Shown: positions 343 through 8,396, counted from the stretch's first letter. The stretch is 8,396 nt of DNA from a virus (IMGVR_UViG_2778261464_000009:1-8396), one strand, 5' to 3'. Notes: generated by a model from the sequence alone, not told the origin. Made by a program: numbers and translations.

Positions 343-513
343 ATGCAACAGTTCGCTATTGCAGGGGCGGCATCGGTTCGCCCTTTCAACCCGATTTTAT
401 CGGTACAGCATTCACGAAAAAATATTTTAACCGGAGCAGACTTTAAACAACCAAGAATGAAAAGTTTGCTCGAAAAGCTTTGGGATATTTTTAAACAACA
501 AGGCCGTCCATGA
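343..513 (+). CDS. Small hypothetical phage protein (56 aa); the track ORF 268..513 trimmed to the RBS-supported start
   Basis: AGGAG at 332-336 sits 6 nt before ATG 343. The stop TGA 511-513 overlaps a downstream ATG at 510 (ATGA). Confidence 0.35.
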   Translation: MQQFAIAGAASVRPFNPILSVQHSRKNILTGADFKQPRMKSLLEKLWDIFKQQGRP

Positions 514-620
514 GTTTTACAGATAACTGGTCAGACGAAGAATTCATTCGTCAGATGAAAGAAATGCTCAATCAGCACAAAGAACAGGAGAAAGATGATG
601 ATTCTGACTCTGAAAGATGA
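510..620 (+). CDS. Possible 36-aa acidic micro-ORF (MSFTDNWSDEEFIRQMKEMLNQHKEQEKDDDSDSER)
   Basis: ATG 510 overlaps the upstream stop. Weak RBS (AAGG). It overlaps the next CDS by 26 nt in another frame. Not in the ORF track because of its size. Confidence 0.2.
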   Translation: MSFTDNWSDEEFIRQMKEMLNQHKEQEKDDDSDSER

Positions 621-906
621 GCGTGAAATATCGCAAATAATCGCAAGTTTTACTGATGAAGATTACGAACGAATCAACAGTGAAGTTGATCGCCTCTGCA
701 AACGTTGCGACCCAATAAGCGAAATGCTTCGCTCATATAAACCAGATGAACACACTAAGGACGCTATCGACTGGCTGGAAGATTATGACTGTAACTATCA
801 GGAAAAAGCCGCTGAATGGTTCTGGGATGCAATAACCGAAAGAGTTAAGGCTGAATATGCCTTCGCAATATTCAAACGCAGACACGTTTATGGAGAAGCA
901 GCATGA
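595..906 (+). CDS. Hypothetical phage protein (103 aa), translationally coupled to recT
   Basis: AGGAG at 586-590; ATG at 595 and 598 (598 gives the better spacing). Stop TGA 904-906 overlaps the recT ATG 903 (ATGA). No recognisable family. Confidence 0.55.
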   Translation: MMILTLKDEREISQIIASFTDEDYERINSEVDRLCKRCDPISEMLRSYKPDEHTKDAIDWLEDYDCNYQEKAAEWFWDAITERVKAEYAFAIFKRRHVYGEAA

Positions 907-1814
907 GCAATATCGTTGAATTCGTTAAACAGCAAGAGCAGTTATTCTGCGGAGCATTGACTGAACAGACGGTGACATGGGCTAAGGAAAGCCAGTTTGC
1001 AATTCAGTATTTCCAGAAAAATGATTACCTGGCTAAAACAGCACTGGCAAATCCAACCAGCGCACAGAACGCCATCATCAATGTTGCGGCGATCGGTATC
1101 ACCTTAAACCCGGCTAGCAAACTGGCTTATCTGGTTCCGCGCGACGGCATGGTGTGCCTTGATATCAGTTATATGGGATTGCTCCATATTGCAATGGAGT
1201 CTGGTGTTATCTCATGGGGTCAGGCAAAACTTGTTCATGCTAACGATACCTATGAGTCAAACGGGCTTGATAAAGCACCAACCCATAAATACAACGCCTT
1301 CGGTGATCGTGGTGATATTGTTGGCGTTTACTGCACAGTTAAGACGCCAGCAGGTGATTATCTAACGGAAGAGATGAGTCTGGCTGAAATTGAGGCTGTA
1401 AGGAAAACAAGCAAGGCAGCATTCAGCGATAAAGGACCATGGGTAAATCACTGGAATGAGATGGCGCGAAAGACGGTCGTAAAGCGTGCAAGCAAGTATT
1501 GGCCTAAGGCATCACGTCTTGATAGTGCTATTCACGTACTAAACGAAGAAGAAGGTGTGTGGACTGAACCAGTTATGCCGCACAAATCAGAGGAAGATAT
1601 CCGCGAAGATGAACGGAAACGCCAGCAGGAAATAATGGATAAAGCACAACTTCTTTGCGATGAAATGGCTCAGGCAGAAAACATGGATGATTTGAAGCGA
1701 TATTTTGCAGAAGCATATCGCCTGACATCTGGAATGAAATTGCAGCAGAACGTACAAGCCATTTACATAGAATGCAAAGCGAAACTGGAGGTTGCCAGTG
1801 AGCAAACTGTATGA
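903..1814 (+). CDS. recT: RecT-family single-strand annealing recombinase
   Basis: 303-aa product with the segment GPWVNHWNEMARKTVVKRASKYWP, which closely matches the conserved E. coli RecT region GPWVTHWEEMAKKTAIRRLFKYLP as recalled. GGAG 7 nt upstream of ATG 903. Confidence 0.85.
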   Translation: MSNIVEFVKQQEQLFCGALTEQTVTWAKESQFAIQYFQKNDYLAKTALANPTSAQNAIINVAAIGITLNPASKLAYLVPRDGMVCLDISYMGLLHIAMESGVISWGQAKLVHANDTYESNGLDKAPTHKYNAFGDRGDIVGVYCTVKTPAGDYLTEEMSLAEIEAVRKTSKAAFSDKGPWVNHWNEMARKTVVKRASKYWPKASRLDSAIHVLNEEEGVWTEPVMPHKSEEDIREDERKRQQEIMDKAQLLCDEMAQAENMDDLKRYFAEAYRLTSGMKLQQNVQAIYIECKAKLEVASEQTV

Positions 1815-2280
1815 AATTGCCAATGAATACGCAAAATTGATGGATTCAGATTTAGAACCAGAGATGATTGCTGACACAATAGAAGGCATGGAAGGAGAAT
1901 TTACCGATAAAATAGAGCAACTTCTTGCCATTATTAAAAATGAATCTGGTTATGCTGAACGCCTCAAGGAAGAGGCAAGGTCGCTGAATGAGCGAGCCGC
2001 AGTAATTCAAAATAAGATTGACAGCATTATGGCGTATATAGCGGCATCGCTTGAAATGGTTGGCAAGAAAAAGATTCGAGCAGGTATTCACCAGGTAACA
2101 ATCCGCAAACCGTCAGAAATTGTAGAAATAATCGACTCAAGCGCCCTTCCTCCTGAATACGTTGAGTTTGAAACGACAATTAAAGCCGACAAACTGGCAA
2201 TCAAACACCAACTAAAAGCAGGAATAAATATCCCCGGTGCTCAACTCAAAGTTGGGAAACCTTCACTTCTTATCAAATAA
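1798..2280 (+). CDS. Siphovirus Gp157-family protein (often partnered with phage annealing proteins)
   Basis: N-terminal LYEIANEYAKL...IADTIEGMEGEF, then a coiled-coil, then a C-terminal VTIRKPSEIVEIID...LPPEYV...IPGAQL pattern, consistent with the Gp157 family as recalled. GGAGG at 1787-1791 is 6 nt before GTG 1798; the track start TTG 1792 is the alternative. Overlaps the recT 3' end. Confidence 0.6.
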   Translation: MSKLYEIANEYAKLMDSDLEPEMIADTIEGMEGEFTDKIEQLLAIIKNESGYAERLKEEARSLNERAAVIQNKIDSIMAYIAASLEMVGKKKIRAGIHQVTIRKPSEIVEIIDSSALPPEYVEFETTIKADKLAIKHQLKAGINIPGAQLKVGKPSLLIK

Positions 2281-2291
2281 CGGTATCGCCT

Positions 2292-2606
2292 ATGAAAAAG
2301 ACTCCATGGGAGAAATGGGAAGTCGATTTCTTGCGCGAGGTAGCGGCGACAATGCCAGTTGAAGTTATCGCAGAAAAACTGGAAAGGACTGAAAAAGCAG
2401 TAATGGCGAAAGCAACAAGGATTGGCGCTGACATTGTTAGCCGACTTCGTGGAAGACGCTGGACAAGAGCCGAAGTATCACTTTTCGGTAAGTTCTCCGC
2501 AGAAGAAATAGCAATTGCAACCTGCCGCTCAATTTATTCAGTAAGAGCTATGCGATACAAGCTAAAAAAACTCGATGAAGAAAGAGCAGGCATACAAATA
2601 AATTAA
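2292..2606 (+). CDS. Hypothetical protein (104 aa) with two internal helix-rich repeats, possibly a Myb/HTH-like DNA-binding fold
   Basis: ORF track. Two similar segments ([32 protein letters not shown] and [31 protein letters not shown]). Weak RBS. Confidence 0.5.
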
Positions 2607-2622
2607 CAAAGAGGAATTTACC

Positions 2623-2787
2623 ATGAGAGGGCTTGCATACAATCCCGGCATTCTTCCGGCAGAAATGATTATTCGCCAACGCGTAAAGCCAATGCCATCG
2701 AGAGAGGAATTGCTTAAGAGAAATTCTTTTCCATCAGTAAATCAAAACAAATATCTGAATGCGATGTGGCGGAGTGGGAAGAAATGA
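2623..2787 (+). CDS. Small hypothetical protein (54 aa, basic)
   Basis: AAGAGG RBS before ATG 2623. Stop TGA 2785-2787 overlaps ATG 2784 of the next CDS (ATGA). Below the track length cutoff. Confidence 0.3.
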
Positions 2788-3266
2788 AACAAATGTCACT
2801 AATTGAGATGGATGATTTTCTGAAAGGTAAATGCATCCCACGAGATTTAAAGGTTAACGAAACAAACGCTGAATATCTGGTGCGTAAATTTGCTGAAGCG
2901 GAGGCCAAGTGCGCGGCGCTGGCCGAAGACCAACAGAAAGCGATTGAGTCAATTAAGCAGGCTGATGCGGCTGTTAAGTTGGCACACGAGAAGTTTTCGG
3001 CGCTGGCGGCGGAGAATGCGGGTCTGAAACACGCAATGGCCGTAACTCTTGAGCATGTGTCGGTAACGGATGCAGGGCAGGCCGGAGTTGCTGCAATGAT
3101 TATCAACGATGCCCTACACCACAGCGAAACCCCAACCACCGATGCTTTCCTGGCTGAAGTACGGGCGCAGGGGGTAGAGATGTTTGCTGACCATCTGTTG
3201 TGCCCAGACCTTGATGACACTATCCGTGACTTTGCTGCCCAGCTTCGCAAAGGAGGCAACCAGTGA
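2784..3266 (+). CDS. Ala-rich coiled-coil phage protein, possibly an Ea22-like module
   Basis: Track ORF 2766..3266. ATG 2784 is preferred because of the ATGA coupling and a GGAG at 2770-2773; GTG 2766 is the alternative. The stop overlaps the next start (GTGA). Confidence 0.55.
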
Positions 3267-3832
3267 GCGAAATTAATTACCAGGCACTGCGTGAGGCGGC
3301 AGAGAAAGCAACGTGGGGAGACTGGGACTCATATAAACCACACCGTGGCGCACGTGGTTATGAGGTCCGACTAAGTAGTCAGGCCATTGCGCAACACGTC
3401 CTGAAAAACAACGCTGAATTTATTGCTGCCTTTAATCCAAAGATTGCTTTGGCACTACTGGATGAACGGGAAAGAAACCAGCAATACATCAAACGCCGCG
3501 ACCAGGAGAACGAGGATATTGCGCTAACAGTAGGGAAGCTGAGAGTTGAGCTGGAAGCCGCAGAGAAGCGCATTGCAGAGCTGGAAAGCAACGAAGTCCG
3601 TGAAGTCGGAAATCAGTTTCTTGTTGTTCGCCATCCTGGGAAAACTCCTGTCATCAAGCACTGCACTGGTGACCTGGAAGAGTTTCTGCGGAAGTTAATC
3701 GAACAAGACCCGTTAGTAACTATCGACATCATTACGCATCGCTATTACGGGATTGGCGGTCAATGGGTTCAGGATGCAGTTGAGTATCTGCATATGATGT
3801 CTGACGCTGGCATTCGCATCAAAGGAGAGTGA
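3263..3832 (+). CDS. Ead/Ea22-like family protein
   Basis: AGGAGG at 3251-3256 is 6 nt before GTG 3263. The N-terminus [17 protein letters not shown]... resembles prophage Ea22-like proteins as recalled; central coiled-coil. Position between the recombination module and xis matches lambda ea22. Confidence 0.55.
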   Translation: MSEINYQALREAAEKATWGDWDSYKPHRGARGYEVRLSSQAIAQHVLKNNAEFIAAFNPKIALALLDERERNQQYIKRRDQENEDIALTVGKLRVELEAAEKRIAELESNEVREVGNQFLVVRHPGKTPVIKHCTGDLEEFLRKLIEQDPLVTIDIITHRYYGIGGQWVQDAVEYLHMMSDAGIRIKGE

Positions 3833-3833
3833 T

Positions 3834-4043
3834 ATGGCTATCGCTGCAAGTTACACCATGCATCTCTATTGTGATTGCCTCCAGTGTACAGATGGCAAAT
3901 ATAAGTCGCCAGACTTCGGTGAGTATATCGGTACGTCATGGGCTGGCTGTGCAAAAGAGGCGCGCAAGGACGGCTGGCGAATAAGCAAAGACAAAACACG
4001 TGCTTTTGCGCCCGGGCATAAAGTTTTGAGGATTAACAAATGA
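3834..4043 (+). CDS. Small Cys-rich protein (69 aa), possible zinc-ribbon
   Basis: AGGAG at 3823-3827 before ATG 3834. The CDC-x2-C motif plus a further Cys suggests metal binding. Stop TGA 4041-4043 overlaps ATG 4040. Confidence 0.5.
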   Translation: MAIAASYTMHLYCDCLQCTDGKYKSPDFGEYIGTSWAGCAKEARKDGWRISKDKTRAFAPGHKVLRINK

Positions 4044-4738
4044 CAACTATTACCAGAGAGCGACTGCTGACAATCAGGCAGTGGCGCGAAACATACGGAC
4101 CGGGTAGCAACGTTGTACTGCCAGCAGAAGAAGCGGAAGAACTGGCACGAATTGCACTGGCATCGATCGAAGCGGAGCCTGTAGCGTGGAAATGGCGGCT
4201 TACTAGTCTTTTTGACGGTGTGCAAATTGGCCCGTGGCGGGTGTGTCTTGCGCCACTATCACCCGGCAAGGGGGATGGGTGCAAGACAGAAGCTATTCCA
4301 CTTTACACCGCCCCGCCAGTACCGGTGGTACCTGCTGCATTACCTGAGAACGACGATGAGGACGGGCATGACATTGATTATCTTGAGCCATCTGAAGTTT
4401 ACGCGCTTGGGCGAACATCTGGCTGGAACGCCTGCCGCGCTGCCATGCTTCATAGTGCCGAACCTGTAAGCCAGGCTTACAAGTTGAACGCGCTGGCTGG
4501 CAACTCTCCGGTAACTCCGGATGGTTGGATAAGCTGTAGTGAGCGAATGCCGAACGATAAACAGTATGTTTGGTGTTGGGGTAAGTCTTACGGTTGGACT
4601 GAGTGCGATACCTTCGAAGGGTATTACGATTGGTCGAGAAACAAATGGTGGGCAGTTACTGACGATGGGGAAGAGCCGGCATCGAAAGTAACCCACTGGA
4701 TGCCGCTGCCAGAACCGCCGGAGCAGGATGGTGAATGA
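4040..4738 (+). CDS. DUF551-domain prophage protein (232 aa)
   Basis: The C-terminal region (PDGWISCSERMPNDKQYVWCW...VTHWMPLPEPP) matches the DUF551 signature as recalled. The N-terminal half is a separate, unrecognised domain. Confidence 0.6.
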   Translation: MTTITRERLLTIRQWRETYGPGSNVVLPAEEAEELARIALASIEAEPVAWKWRLTSLFDGVQIGPWRVCLAPLSPGKGDGCKTEAIPLYTAPPVPVVPAALPENDDEDGHDIDYLEPSEVYALGRTSGWNACRAAMLHSAEPVSQAYKLNALAGNSPVTPDGWISCSERMPNDKQYVWCWGKSYGWTECDTFEGYYDWSRNKWWAVTDDGEEPASKVTHWMPLPEPPEQDGE

Positions 4739-4824
4739 TGCCGCCAGTTAAAGTTGTGATTATCACTTTGGTGATGATAGTGATTGCGAGAATCATGTCT
4801 GGTGAAGTTTGGTGGATATGGTAA
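4735..4824 (+). CDS. Predicted 29-aa hydrophobic single-helix membrane peptide (MMPPVKVVIITLVMIVIARIMSGEVWWIW)
   Basis: ATG 4735 overlaps the upstream stop TGA 4736-4738. One continuous hydrophobic stretch with a Trp-rich C-terminus. Two hairpin-plus-T-tract structures follow directly. Confidence 0.3.
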   Translation: MMPPVKVVIITLVMIVIARIMSGEVWWIW

Positions 4825-4857
4825 TGGCTAAGGCAGCAGCAGAGCGCAACTAACAAT

Positions 4858-4882
4858 CCTCGCTCTCGCGGGGATTTCTTTT
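4858..4882 (+). terminator. Putative intrinsic terminator (first of a tandem pair)
   Basis: Stem CCTCGC/GCGGGG (5 Watson-Crick pairs plus one G-U) with loop TCTC, followed by ATTTCTTTT. Confidence 0.4.
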
Positions 4883-4887
4883 ATCTG

Positions 4888-4912
4888 AACTCGCTACGGC
4901 GAGTTTTGTTTT
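4888..4912 (+). terminator. Putative intrinsic terminator (second of the pair)
   Basis: Perfect 7-bp stem AACTCGC/GCGAGTT with loop TACG, followed by TTGTTTT. Confidence 0.45.
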
Positions 4913-4925
4913 ATGGAGATGATAA

Positions 4926-5093
4926 ATGCACTTCCGAGTCACAGGAGAATGGAATGGAGAGCCATTCAACAGAGTTATCGAAGCAGAGAACATCAACGAC
5001 TGCTATGACCACTGGATGCTATGGGCGCAGATAGCACATGCAGACGTAACCAATATTCGAATTGAAGAACTGAAAGAACACCAAGCCGCCTGA
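4926..5093 (+). CDS. Small hypothetical protein (55 aa)
   Basis: GGAG at 4915-4918 is 7 nt before ATG 4926. Product MHFRVTGEWNGEPFNRVIEAENINDCYDHWMLWAQIAHADVTNIRIEELKEHQAA. The stop lies inside a terminator hairpin. Below the track cutoff. Confidence 0.45.
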   Translation: MHFRVTGEWNGEPFNRVIEAENINDCYDHWMLWAQIAHADVTNIRIEELKEHQAA

Positions 5094-5108
5094 TGGCGGT
5101 TTTTTATT
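5083..5108 (+). terminator. Putative intrinsic terminator
   Basis: GC stem GCCGCC/GGCGG(T) with loop TGAT, followed by TTTTTTATT. Confidence 0.45.
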
Positions 5109-5119
5109 GGAGACAAGAA

Positions 5120-5464
5120 ATGTCAGATTTGGCTATGAAGGTTTTGAAATGGCAATCGACTGGCGATGTTGGCATCAGTAGCGCAACTCTTGCCTCAATC
5201 GCATGTGGACTGAAAAAGAATATCTATGGTCATAGCTTCGGTGCTCCACATGACGCAGCCGATTTCCGACGATGCGTTGCGCTTGTCGAGCAGATTCCAG
5301 AAATCAGGGATTCATTCGACAAGGTTGCAAAGCGCGTTCCGGCATTCAAAGGAATCCTCAACGAATGGGATTCCCTCGTTGCTCTGTTGAAGTCTGAAAT
5401 GAAGATACACGGAAACAAAGCACCAGAGACTTACAGAAGAATCAGCGAGCTACGCAAGGACTAA
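5120..5464 (+). CDS. Hypothetical protein (114 aa), uncharacterised accessory gene just upstream of xis
   Basis: Track ORF 5093..5464 trimmed to ATG 5120, which has a GGAG at 5109-5112 with 7-nt spacing; ATG 5093 sits inside the terminator stem. No recognisable family. Confidence 0.55.
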   Translation: MSDLAMKVLKWQSTGDVGISSATLASIACGLKKNIYGHSFGAPHDAADFRRCVALVEQIPEIRDSFDKVAKRVPAFKGILNEWDSLVALLKSEMKIHGNKAPETYRRISELRKD

Positions 5465-5553
5465 CCACAGCCTCACACTCGATGAGGCCTGTTCATTTCT
5501 CAAGATATCCAGACCTACCGCAATAATACCAACGCAATAAATGGAGATTCCAG

Positions 5554-5901
5554 GTGGAAGAAGAAATCTTCACTCGTGAAGAGGCTGCGTCGTATCTGAA
5601 GGTAGACAAAGGCACTATCACGCAGTGGATACGAAGTGGACGACTTCAAGCCGCAAAGATAAATCCAGATAAACCTAAAAGCCCATATCGCATTTGCAAG
5701 TCAGACTGCATTGCGGCGCTTAAGTCTGTGAGACACAATAGCGCGGTGAATGCGGTTGATGTGCAGGAGGTTAAAGCATGTCAATCAAACTACGCGGTGG
5801 CACGTGGCACTGCGATTTCGTCGCGCCAGATGGATCAAGAGTTAGACGCTCTCTTGAAACATCGGACAAAAGGCAAGCGCAAGAACTTCACGATCGTCTG
5901 A
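5554..5901 (+). CDS. xis: Excisionase-family DNA-binding protein (Xis)
   Basis: N-terminal FTREEAASYLKVDKGTITQWIRSGRLQAAKI matches the excisionase-family HTH pattern. GGAG is 7 nt before GTG 5554. It lies directly upstream of int and overlaps it by 124 nt in another frame; the 3' extent is uncertain. Confidence 0.6.
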   Translation: MEEEIFTREEAASYLKVDKGTITQWIRSGRLQAAKINPDKPKSPYRICKSDCIAALKSVRHNSAVNAVDVQEVKACQSNYAVARGTAISSRQMDQELDALLKHRTKGKRKNFTIV

Positions 5902-6938
5902 AAGCAGAAGCGTGGAGAGTAAAAAATCTCGGGGAATCACCGAAAAAGCTATTCAAGGAAGCCTGCATACGGTGGCTGCGTGAGAAATCGGATAAGAAGT
6001 CCATTGATGATGACAAGAGCATTATATCGTTCTGGATGTTGCACTTCAGAGAAACCATTCTCTCTGACATAACAACAGAAAAAATAATGGAGGCGGTAGA
6101 CGGGATGGAAAACCGCCGCCATCGCCTGAACTGGGAGATGAGCCGGGACAGGTGTTTGCGGCTTGGCAAGCCAGTGCCGGAGTATAAACCAAAGCTGGCA
6201 AGCAAAGGAACGAAGACGCGGCATCTGGCAATACTTCGCGCTATTCTCAATATGGCTGTTGAATGGGGATGGCTTGACAGGGCGCCAAAAATATCAACAC
6301 CACGCGTTAAGAATGGACGAATCAGATGGCTTACAGAGGAGGAATCGAAGCGCCTGTTTGCAGAAATTGCTCCTCATTTCTTCCCTGTGGTCATGTTTGC
6401 AATCACGACAGGCCTTCGCCGTTCCAACGTTACAGACCTTGAGTGGTCACAGGTCGATCTGGATAAGAAAATGGCATGGATGCACCCTGATGAAACAAAA
6501 GCTGGCAATGCGATCGGAGTTCCTCTTAACGAAACCGCATGCCAGATATTAAGAAAACAGCAGGGGCTCCATAAGAGATGGGTATTTGTCCACACCAAAC
6601 CTGCCTACCGAAGCGACGGAACAAAAACAGCAGCGGTAAGGAAGATGAGAACCGACAGCAACAAGGCATGGAAGGGAGCGTTAAAGCGGGCAGGCATTAG
6701 CAACTTCCGCTTCCATGACCTGAGGCATACCTGGGCAAGCTGGCTGGTTCAGTCTGGTGTCTCTCTTCTTGCGCTTAAAGAGATGGGAGGATGGGAAACT
6801 CTCGAAATGGTTCAAAGATACGCCCACCTTTCAGCCGGGCATCTCACCGAGCACGCGAGCAAAATCGATGCGATTATAAGTCGCAATGGCACAAATACGG
6901 CACAAGAGGAGAACGTAGTTTACTTAAATGCGAGGTAA
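5778..6938 (+). CDS. int: Tyrosine-type site-specific integrase (phage integrase family)
   Basis: 386 aa. N-terminal arm-type domain (MSIKLRGGTWHCDFVAPDGSRVRRS...). Catalytic residues in context: TGLRRSN, HDLRHTWAS, and Tyr in MVQRYAHL. AGGAGG is 7 nt before ATG 5778. Ends 14 bp from the tRNA. Confidence 0.9.
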   Translation: MSIKLRGGTWHCDFVAPDGSRVRRSLETSDKRQAQELHDRLKAEAWRVKNLGESPKKLFKEACIRWLREKSDKKSIDDDKSIISFWMLHFRETILSDITTEKIMEAVDGMENRRHRLNWEMSRDRCLRLGKPVPEYKPKLASKGTKTRHLAILRAILNMAVEWGWLDRAPKISTPRVKNGRIRWLTEEESKRLFAEIAPHFFPVVMFAITTGLRRSNVTDLEWSQVDLDKKMAWMHPDETKAGNAIGVPLNETACQILRKQQGLHKRWVFVHTKPAYRSDGTKTAAVRKMRTDSNKAWKGALKRAGISNFRFHDLRHTWASWLVQSGVSLLALKEMGGWETLEMVQRYAHLSAGHLTEHASKIDAIISRNGTNTAQEENVVYLNAR

Positions 6939-6952
6939 CTTATTGATTTAAA

Positions 6953-7028
6953 TGGTGCCGATAATAGGAGTCGAACCTACGACCTTCGCATTACGAATGC
7001 GCTGCTCTACCAACTGAGCTATATCGGC
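6953..7028 (-). tRNA. thrW: tRNA-Thr (anticodon CGU)
   Basis: The reverse complement is a 76-nt tRNA: GCCGATATAGCTCAGTTGGTAGAGCAGCGCATTCGTAATGCGAAGGTCGTAGGTTCGACTCCTATTATCGGCACCA. 7-bp acceptor stem, GTTCGA T-loop, anticodon CGT at positions 34-36, encoded CCA end. Confidence 0.9.
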
Positions 7029-7142: not shown

Positions 7143-8396
7143 TTACGCACGAATGGTGTAATCACCAATGCCGATCCACTTGTAAGTGGTCAGTGCTTCC
7201 AGCCCCATTGGGCCACGCGCGTGGAGTTTTTGTGTGCTTACCGCCACTTCCGCACCCAGTCCAAACTGACCGCCGTCGGTAAAACGCGTAGAAGCGTTAA
7301 CGTAAACAGCGGACGAATCCACTTCGTTAACAAAACGCTGGGCGTTGCGCATATCGCGGGTCAGGATCGCATCGGAGTGTTGTGTGCCGTGTTCACGAAT
7401 ATGGGCGATGGCATCGTCAAGATCGCTGACGATTTTGACGTTCAAATCTAATGACAGAAACTCATCGTCATACTCTTCGGCTTTAACCGCCACCACCTTC
7501 GCGGGGCCAGCCTGCAACTGTGTCAGCGCAGCTGCATCTGCGTGTAATGTCACGCCGCTTTCCGCCATTTGTTTGCTTAATACGGGCAGGAAGCTATCGG
7601 CGATGTTTTTATTCACCAGCAACGTTTCTACCGTATTACATGTGCTCGGACGCTGAGTTTTCGCGTTGACGATCACTTTTAATGCTTCAGCGATCTCTGC
7701 ACTTTCATCAACATAAATATGGCATACGCCTATACCACCTGTGATCACCGGGATCGTCGACTGTTCGCGGCACAGTTTATGCAAACCAGCCCCGCCGCGC
7801 GGGATCAGCATGTCGATGTATTTATCCATACGCAGCATTTCACTGACCAGCGCACGGTCAGGATTATCAATTGCCTGCACGGCACCCGCCGGTAAGCCAC
7901 AGGATTTCAGGGCGTCCTGAATCACCGCCACCGTTGCCGCGTTAGTGCGACAGGTTTCTTTGCCGCCGCGCAGGATCACCGCGTTACCGGTTTTCAGGCA
8001 CAGCGAAGCGACATCAACCGTCACGTTCGGGCGCGCTTCATAAATCACGCCAATAACCCCCAGCGGTACGCGACGACGCTCAAGACGCAGGCCGCTGTCC
8101 AGTACGCCGCCATCGATTACCTGCCCCACCGGATCGGCGAGGTTGCACACCTGACGTACATCGTCGGCAATGCCTTTCAGCCGTGCGGGCGTCAGTGCCA
8201 GACGGTCAAGCATCGCTTCGCTAAGGCCATTGGCACGCGCGTCAGCAACATCCTGGGCGTTAGCGTTGAGGATGATTTTGCTCTGTGCTTCCAGTTCATC
8301 GGCGATTTTTTCCAGCACGCGATTTTTTTCGCGGCTTGAGAGTTGCGCTAATTTATACGAGGCTTGCTTCGCGGCAATGCCCATTTGCTCCAGCAT
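7143..8396 (-). CDS. proA: Gamma-glutamyl phosphate reductase (glutamate-5-semialdehyde dehydrogenase), full length
   Basis: 417-aa product beginning [39 protein letters not shown]... and ending ...[12 protein letters not shown], near-identical to E. coli ProA as recalled. The start codon is at the window's right edge. Confidence 0.95.

Follow-up and report, generated by a model that had tools for sequence, protein, structure and literature searches.

A stretch of viral DNA of 8,396 nucleotides (nt; IMGVR_UViG_2778261464_000009:1-8396, the whole of which we call the window) carries, between positions 343 and 4824, a block of phage genes on one strand whose stop and start codons repeatedly share an ATGA or GTGA tetranucleotide. 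The original prediction for this DNA took these overlaps as the sign of a single polycistronic unit with translational coupling, probably an early leftward-type operon that depends on antitermination, and as support for small open reading frames (ORFs) that a six-frame track misses. How far do the overlaps justify these conclusions? Judged from its sequence, the block is the middle of a lambda/P22-type early-left (pL) gene string consisting of cIII, a recombination module and the “ea” part. We consider that the best explanation of the locus as a whole, with a probability of roughly 85%, is a central segment of a pL operon, transcribed by N/nutL-dependent read-through, whose genes are packed by 4-nt (-4) overlaps of the NTGA type. 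Operon layout, -4 overlaps and N-dependent read-through are all textbook lambdoid traits, already known and marking no departure from lambdoid biology, and the significance of the analysis is chiefly one of annotation.

Gene order and orientation carry this assignment. The genes cIII, recombination module, ea genes, xis, int and the attachment site (att) follow one another on a single strand, with kil missing, and the plus strand runs as a pL transcript does, towards xis and int. The attachment site is a tRNA-Thr(CGT) gene on the minus strand (6953-7028), recognized by ARAGORN, by the Rfam tRNA family and by Prokaryotic Genome Annotation Pipeline (PGAP) annotation in relatives; beyond it lies proA, also on the minus strand (7143-8396). 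The sequence thereby identifies the element as a lambdoid/P22-like prophage at tRNA-Thr(CGT)/thrW, adjoining proA, and the same proA, tRNA-Thr, integrase and excisionase arrangement with a prophage at its left is found in PGAP-annotated E. coli genomes. Relative to xis, int and tRNA-Thr, the order and orientation agree with those of the lambda, P22 and HK97 pL operons, in support of the early leftward designation.

In P22 the operon reads PL-nutL-24...17-terminator-c3-kil-arf-erf-abc1-abc2-orf56-ea genes-xis-int, the same order and orientation to xis, int and att as in the window. Both place a terminator immediately before c3/cIII and a small acidic gene ahead of the annealing module (Arf in P22, the ORF at 510 here, with SDEEFI in common), and the annotated coordinates of P22 give -4 overlaps, as in the window, at arf/erf, eaE/orf45, eaF/eaD and eaD/eaI. 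The window differs from P22 in having RecT and Gp157 in place of Erf and Abc1/Abc2, in lacking kil, in ea genes of other sequence types (Ead/Ea22-like and DUF551), and in an extra 102-residue gene between the Arf-like ORF and the annealing protein. Lambda (N...ral-ea10-cIII-kil-gam-bet-exo-orf60a...ea22-ea8.5-p35-xis-int) is likewise collinear, with a DUF2528 gene taking the position of ea10 before cIII in the window; the two share cIII, an Ea22-family gene and p35 (98% identical), and the annotated coordinates of lambda give 4-nt overlaps at bet/exo and exo/orf60a. A further likeness is N/nutL antitermination control of the lambda pL operon, although in our case N and nutL fall outside the window. 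Lambda has Red (Exo/Beta/Gam) where the window has RecT/Gp157, as well as another integration site, and most of the ea genes are unrelated. HK97, with N-gp45-terminator-cIII-kil-gp42.1-erf, is collinear too.

Many known phages share parts of the window. Megablast returned segments of 95-98% identity in 637 phage records, including HK140, mEpX1, Kapi1, Gally and mEp043. The best phage record covered at most 54% of the query and the best complete E. coli genome at most 79%; in the window, then, known lambdoid/P22-like modules form a mosaic of new composition. HK140, mEpX1, Kapi1 and Gally share 95-98% nucleotide identity over 281/510-2900 and other segments and annotate the same junctions (-4 at RecT, -17 at Gp157 and -4 after DUF2737), whereas the ea part of the window (2900-4700) is a different mosaic combination. 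Such composition is in keeping with published descriptions of P22-like early-left operons, which begin with an N homolog and are highly mosaic (PMC2629481) and which hold a contiguous recombination (Rec) module (PMC12315714).

A pattern scan predicted no intrinsic terminator on the plus strand inside 343-4824. Upstream, the scan found a terminator-like hairpin on the plus strand at 291-310 (-9.9 kcal/mol, z -2.5), and in P22 and HK97 the corresponding position, directly before c3/cIII, is likewise annotated as a terminator. Downstream, tandem plus-strand intrinsic terminators are predicted at 4855-4906 (4855-4876 and 4887-4906; -24.9 kcal/mol, z -6.4), and scanning and folding predict further plus-strand terminators at 5083-5102 and 5470-5488. 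HK140, Gally, MB53 and EC12, relatives with the same left end as the window, have an N gene 1-2 kb upstream, and a nutL boxA is annotated in HK140 and P22. Taken together, a terminator-free block, hairpins that bracket it and an upstream N/nutL in relatives point to one segment of a long N-dependent transcript reaching int, rather than to a separate operon. The claim of a single polycistronic unit thus holds as to the single strand and the lack of a predicted internal terminator on it, but not as to self-containment, as the transcription unit very probably extends past 343-4824 and the block would be a segment of an N-to-int transcript. By analogy with homologous phages, induction would start transcription at pL upstream of the window, N acting at nutL would make the transcript resistant to terminators, and polymerase would then read through 291-310, the block, 4855-4906 and the later terminators into xis and int.

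The overlaps themselves are all present: ATGA at 510-513, 903-906, 2784-2787, 4040-4043 and 4735-4738, and GTGA at 3263-3266. At each of these six junctions a TGA closes the upstream ORF and an ATG or GTG opens the downstream one. The list was nevertheless incomplete, omitting the RecT/Gp157 junction, where the GTG at 1798 lies inside RecT (stop at 1814) to give an overlap of 17 nt; annotations of HK140, MB53, EC12 and Kapi1 show this overlap at the same length. Listed by downstream start, the distances along the block are -4 at 510, -23 at 598, -4 at 903, -17 at 1798, +11 at 2292, +16 at 2623, -4 at 2784 and 3263, +1 at 3834, and -4 at 4040 and 4735. A GTGA at 3829-3832, at the stop of the Ea22-like gene, could be taken for a seventh overlap and opens a 51-codon ORF in an alternative frame (3829-3984); we rejected it as a decoy, since the true start of the gene that follows is ATG 3834, which has a good Shine-Dalgarno (SD) sequence (-8.7 kcal/mol) and a PHROG 926 match.

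We compared the number of such junctions with 1000 dinucleotide shuffles, applying a threshold of at least 25 or at least 50 codons on either side. At 25 codons the shuffles averaged 2.3 junctions and 36 of the 1000 reached six, making the raw count of six weakly significant. At 50 codons we observed 5 junctions (903, 2784, 3263, 4040 and the decoy at 3829), of which four are real, whereas the shuffles averaged 0.18 and never gave more than 3, so that none of the 1000 reached 4. A shared NTGA stop/start lies between genes that both have family support or evidence of selection at 510, 903, 2784, 3263 and 4040. The overlaps of the block exceed chance.

Conservation of the junctions, suggested earlier as a check, was assessed over 107 related loci, of which other enterobacterial genera contributed 18 (RecT 67-91% identical), IMG/VR 80 and annotated records 9. 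This comparison is stronger evidence than the shuffles. Overlaps were kept in related phages even where the neighboring gene had changed. Counted in distinct sequence contexts, the 4-nt overlap was retained after cIII in 11 of 12, between the 598 gene and RecT in 23 of 23, after DUF2737 in 48 of 50 (with ATGA and GTGA about equally frequent), after the 2784 gene in 24 of 25 and after the 3834 gene in 7 of 7, but after DUF551 in only 15 of 40. Across the same loci Gp157 and the 2292 gene are each followed by a junction conserved as non-overlapping. Of 43 clusters of homology breakpoints, 11 fell no more than 15 nt from a start or stop, compared with an expectation of 12.6% (P = 0.015). Heavy clusters were at 278, 510, 2621, 4039 and 5106, and many relatives become homologous to the window at about 278-281. 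This clustering at gene junctions indicates that modules have been swapped at overlapping junctions, the classical lambdoid pattern.

Do the overlaps then support the small ORFs? Overlaps alone provide no validation, but other evidence establishes two of the three that had been proposed, at 510-620 and 2623-2787, and leaves the third, 4735-4824, unproven. The first, on the plus strand with its ATGA on the cIII stop, encodes a small acidic protein of 36 residues (PHROG 17766, E 8.6e-16; PHROG 2123, E 9e-12) and by its pattern of sequence change is a real gene under purifying selection. Among related loci we found 26 distinct ORF sequences, 25 of them intact, and the ATGA start has persisted although the sequence in front of it varies, being of no fewer than four kinds (cIII, kil and two more). 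The ratio of nonsynonymous to synonymous differences per site (pN/pS) in the 28 non-overlapping codons was 0.17-0.35 in comparisons with the diverged orthologs of locus L104, Enterobacter L010 and Erwinia L012, synonymous sites being near-saturated, while the two alternative frames of the region contain stops and have pN at or above pS. Over residues 1-20/21 the protein shares 86-90% identity with the start of HK97 gp42.1 and with Sf6 gene 30, and 92 phage records contain the match; the equivalent in Kapi1 is annotated (Kapi1_014), and the exact protein is called on 747 contigs. In the window and in HK140, kil is missing between cIII and this ORF. Kapi1, HK97 and mEp043 have kil, and there the 510-type ORF begins with an ATGA on the kil stop (regions compared: window 510-513, L005 2352-2608 and L141 1352-1752).

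The product of 510-620 is possibly Arf-like. Its similarity to P22 Arf is weak (38% identity over 21 residues that include the shared SDEEFI, with E = 0.002 in a search of just 11 sequences), and its placement is alike, yet a 102-residue gene intervenes and the partner is RecT rather than Erf. More speculatively, the protein might be an Arf-type cofactor serving annealing proteins of the RecT type as well as the Erf type. The second small gene, 2623-2787 on the plus strand, encodes 54 residues that by similarity are a full-length DUF2737 protein of the P22 orf56/HK97 gp38 family. The match to PF10930 scored 107.7 bits, well above the cut-off of 25 (E 2.6e-31), and spanned model positions 1-52 of 53; the protein is 75% identical to P22 orf56 and occurs in exact form on at least 1000 contigs. 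These two genes, the 36-residue gp42.1/Arf-like one and DUF2737, are real and are overlooked by simple ORF tracks.

The third small ORF is a candidate with mixed evidence. At 4735-4824 on the plus strand, with its ATGA on the DUF551 stop, a hydrophobic frame of 29 codons (MMPPVKVVIITLVMIVIARIMSGEVWWIW) may be either a gene or a stretch of untranslated tail, running from the DUF551 stop to the terminators or the next gene, that is open by chance. The latter is slightly the likelier, and a gene here is somewhat doubtful. The peptide matched no Pfam or PHROG family, and the ORF is unannotated in the three phage records inspected (E212, EC.P3 and Stx2a_F349). Its 40 instances, which represent 13 distinct 120-nt sequences, are all at least 90% identical and differ by 4 nonsynonymous changes, 1 synonymous change and 1 stop in the last codon, a pattern compatible with neutrality; given the composition, the inner 28 codons would stay open by chance with a probability of 0.13. 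A chance tail fits less easily with the exact placement of the ORF between DUF551 (ATGA) and a PHROG 536 gene (TAATG) in loci L112, L116 and L139, with a frame open in 40 of 40 instances (one losing the last codon), or with 6 variable sites in its 90 positions compared with 7 in the 30 nt that follow. Also on the side of a gene are an SD-like AGGA before 4735 (-5.9 kcal/mol), a clean single hydrophobic helix (grand average of hydropathy, GRAVY, 1.58), and the behavior of 4735-4850 as a separate mosaic module: about 212 complete E. coli genomes have it, whereas about 2500 have the terminators that come next. By a rough estimate, phase and start requirements included, the chance of such an open frame is about 2%.

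If translated, the ORF could encode an unannotated 29-residue single-helix membrane peptide, re-initiated at the DUF551 stop in the distal ea region of some lambdoid/Shiga toxin (Stx) prophages, a proposal that we put forward tentatively. Adjoining DUF551, and found in Stx2 phages among others, it makes a reasonable small membrane protein candidate. A degenerate back-translated DNA pattern of the peptide found 31 loci in IMG/VR, nearly identical to one another. L112 and L139 carry the following PHROG 536 gene (112 residues, “transcriptional regulator”, E 1.2e-53) whole, and in L116 the contig ends within it; the window retains a remnant of this gene, 8 codons plus stop, on the plus strand at 4824-4853 (ATGGCTAAGGCAGCAGCAGAGCGCAACTAA), and a deletion joins this remnant at about 4849 to the tandem terminators. 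We also considered a type I toxin-like identity for the ORF and rejected it: no evidence of an antisense RNA was found, the sole signal on the minus strand being a 9/12 promoter-like site at 4801-4774, and the ORF has no Rfam family. Folding of 4730-4853 was not significant against shuffles on either strand (z -1.7, and -0.04 for the minus strand). Short inverted repeats occur inside the ORF at 4760-4800 (GTGATTATCAC and TGATTGCGAGAATCA).

Translational coupling across the overlaps is plausible. Among co-directional prokaryotic genes, no spacing is nearly as common as -4 NTGA (PMC6728339, PMC12548453), and of 14 NTGA or TGATG pairs tested, 5 of them from E. coli, 13 were strictly coupled (PMC6728339). 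Known coupled -4 NTGA pairs have the same tetranucleotide geometry as those of the window, where the SD mostly lies within the 3’-terminal part of the upstream gene (PMC6728339, PMC12548453). In such an arrangement a terminating ribosome would be able to re-initiate on the next gene, and re-initiation would count most at starts with a weak SD, such as 510. The SD at 510 is weak (-3.0 kcal/mol), which makes this start the best candidate for dependence on termination-reinitiation. As far as predicted SD strength can indicate, the starts at 510 and 2292 would most likely depend on an upstream ribosome.

The overlaps could instead be a by-product of genome compaction and of the ease with which NTGA arises, the genes being co-transcribed but each served by its own ribosome-binding site, with no functional coupling. 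We regard this as a serious possibility, though not the favored one. Nine of the 12 starts have an SD of their own (-5.9 to -11.6 kcal/mol, where 8-10% of background positions reach -6), a review credits the abundance of -4 overlaps probably to ease of evolution and does not find -4 exceptional for coupling (PMC12548453), and the conserved non-overlapping junctions after Gp157 and the 2292 gene would be expected on the same view. What it accommodates poorly is the strict coupling of nearly all the NTGA/TGATG pairs that have been tested (PMC6728339), and the start at 510, whose ATGA has been kept behind four different upstream genes despite its weak SD.

It is improbable that the block is instead divided, by internal promoters and Rho-dependent or cryptic terminators, so that the recombination genes are expressed separately from the ea/DUF551 genes: two weak (9/12) plus-strand promoter-like sites at 516-543 and 1871-1900, the differing origins of the mosaic modules and the inability of scanning or folding to detect Rho-dependent terminators could be cited for it, but the whole window has 6 promoter-like sites against 10.8 expected from shuffles, no intrinsic terminator is predicted within the block, 8 of its 11 junctions overlap or leave a 1-nt gap and the largest gap is 16 nt, leaving no room for regulatory regions, and the curated P22 record has no promoter or terminator on the leftward transcript from c3 to eaG.

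Certain points weigh against our preferred account of the block as a central, N-dependent pL segment with -4 packed genes. Antitermination dependence rests on relatives, because pL, N and nutL lie outside the window, and the terminators and promoters described here were predicted from consensus matches or folding. At the 25-codon threshold, 3.6% of shuffles reach the raw count of six overlaps, and the 9 of 12 starts with their own SD could initiate independently, so that coupling is not required.

The remaining genes of the block, all on the plus strand, fill out this arrangement, and the RecT, Ead/Ea22 and DUF551 identities proposed at the outset were borne out by Pfam. Following the end of a DUF2528 gene (70-267), the cIII homolog (343-513, 56 residues) matches PHROG 550 (E 1e-21), is annotated in relatives and has an SD of -8.8 kcal/mol. 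The gene at 598-906 encodes a conserved 102-residue protein, function unknown (PHROG 3486, E 1.1e-57); a start equivalent to 598 is annotated in relatives, and ATG 595 is an alternative. Next, through an ATGA overlap, comes the RecT single-strand annealing protein (903-1814; Pfam RecT, E 3.7e-32; PHROG 148, E 5.9e-92), then a Siphovirus Gp157/Mu Gam-like protein (1798-2280; Pfam Sipho_Gp157, E 5.2e-36; PHROG 253, E 5.8e-53) with a GTG start and an SD of -10.0 kcal/mol. An uncharacterized 104-residue protein is encoded at 2292-2606 (PHROG 11492, E 4.5e-23; PHROG 323, E 2.2e-20) behind a weak SD of -3.0 kcal/mol. Its homolog in the Gally record (L002 5012-5326) is called “Anti-RecBCD protein 1, similar to P22 Abc1”; we rejected the Abc1 identity, as blastp against P22 Abc1 returned nothing at E up to 10.

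Beyond DUF2737, an ea-type (coiled-coil) protein of 160 residues (2784-3266; PHROG 614, E 6e-57) begins with an ATGA on the DUF2737 stop and is joined through the GTGA overlap to the Ead/Ea22-like protein (3263-3832; Pfam Ead_Ea22, E 1.2e-31; SD -11.6 kcal/mol). One nucleotide after the stop of the latter, a Cys-rich protein of 69 residues is encoded at 3834-4043 (PHROG 926, E 1.5e-36), followed across an ATGA overlap by the DUF551 protein (4040-4738; Pfam DUF551, E 2.8e-17; PHROG 60, E 4.3e-63).

Downstream of the block and on the same strand are the homolog of lambda p35 (4926-5093, 55 residues, 98% identical to lambdap35; PHROG 676), a conserved 114-residue protein resembling HK022 p30 (5120-5464; PHROG 1229, E 1.9e-51), and the excisionase and tyrosine integrase (5554-6938; PHROG 2907, Pfam HTH_17 and Phage_integrase). 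The p35 homolog stands alone between the terminators at 4855-4906 and 5083-5102. Of 5426 complete E. coli genomes, some 2500 share the sequence from about 4850 onward, which makes it far commoner than the block just upstream. An Rfam scan of the window, in which we looked for a cIII thermometer, nut/boxB and antisense RNAs, gave the tRNA as its sole match. The excisionase ORF (5554-5901) and the integrase (5778-6938) overlap by 124 nt, the same length as the xis/int overlap of P22 (22393-22516), and an overlap of similar kind is annotated in E. coli relatives. Finally, two 1.9-kb contigs labeled Micromonospora sp. and Streptomyces sp. (L018 and L019) carry an enterobacterial-type RecT (72% amino acid identity) with the same neighbors, and are probably contamination of the Micromonospora and Streptomyces assemblies.

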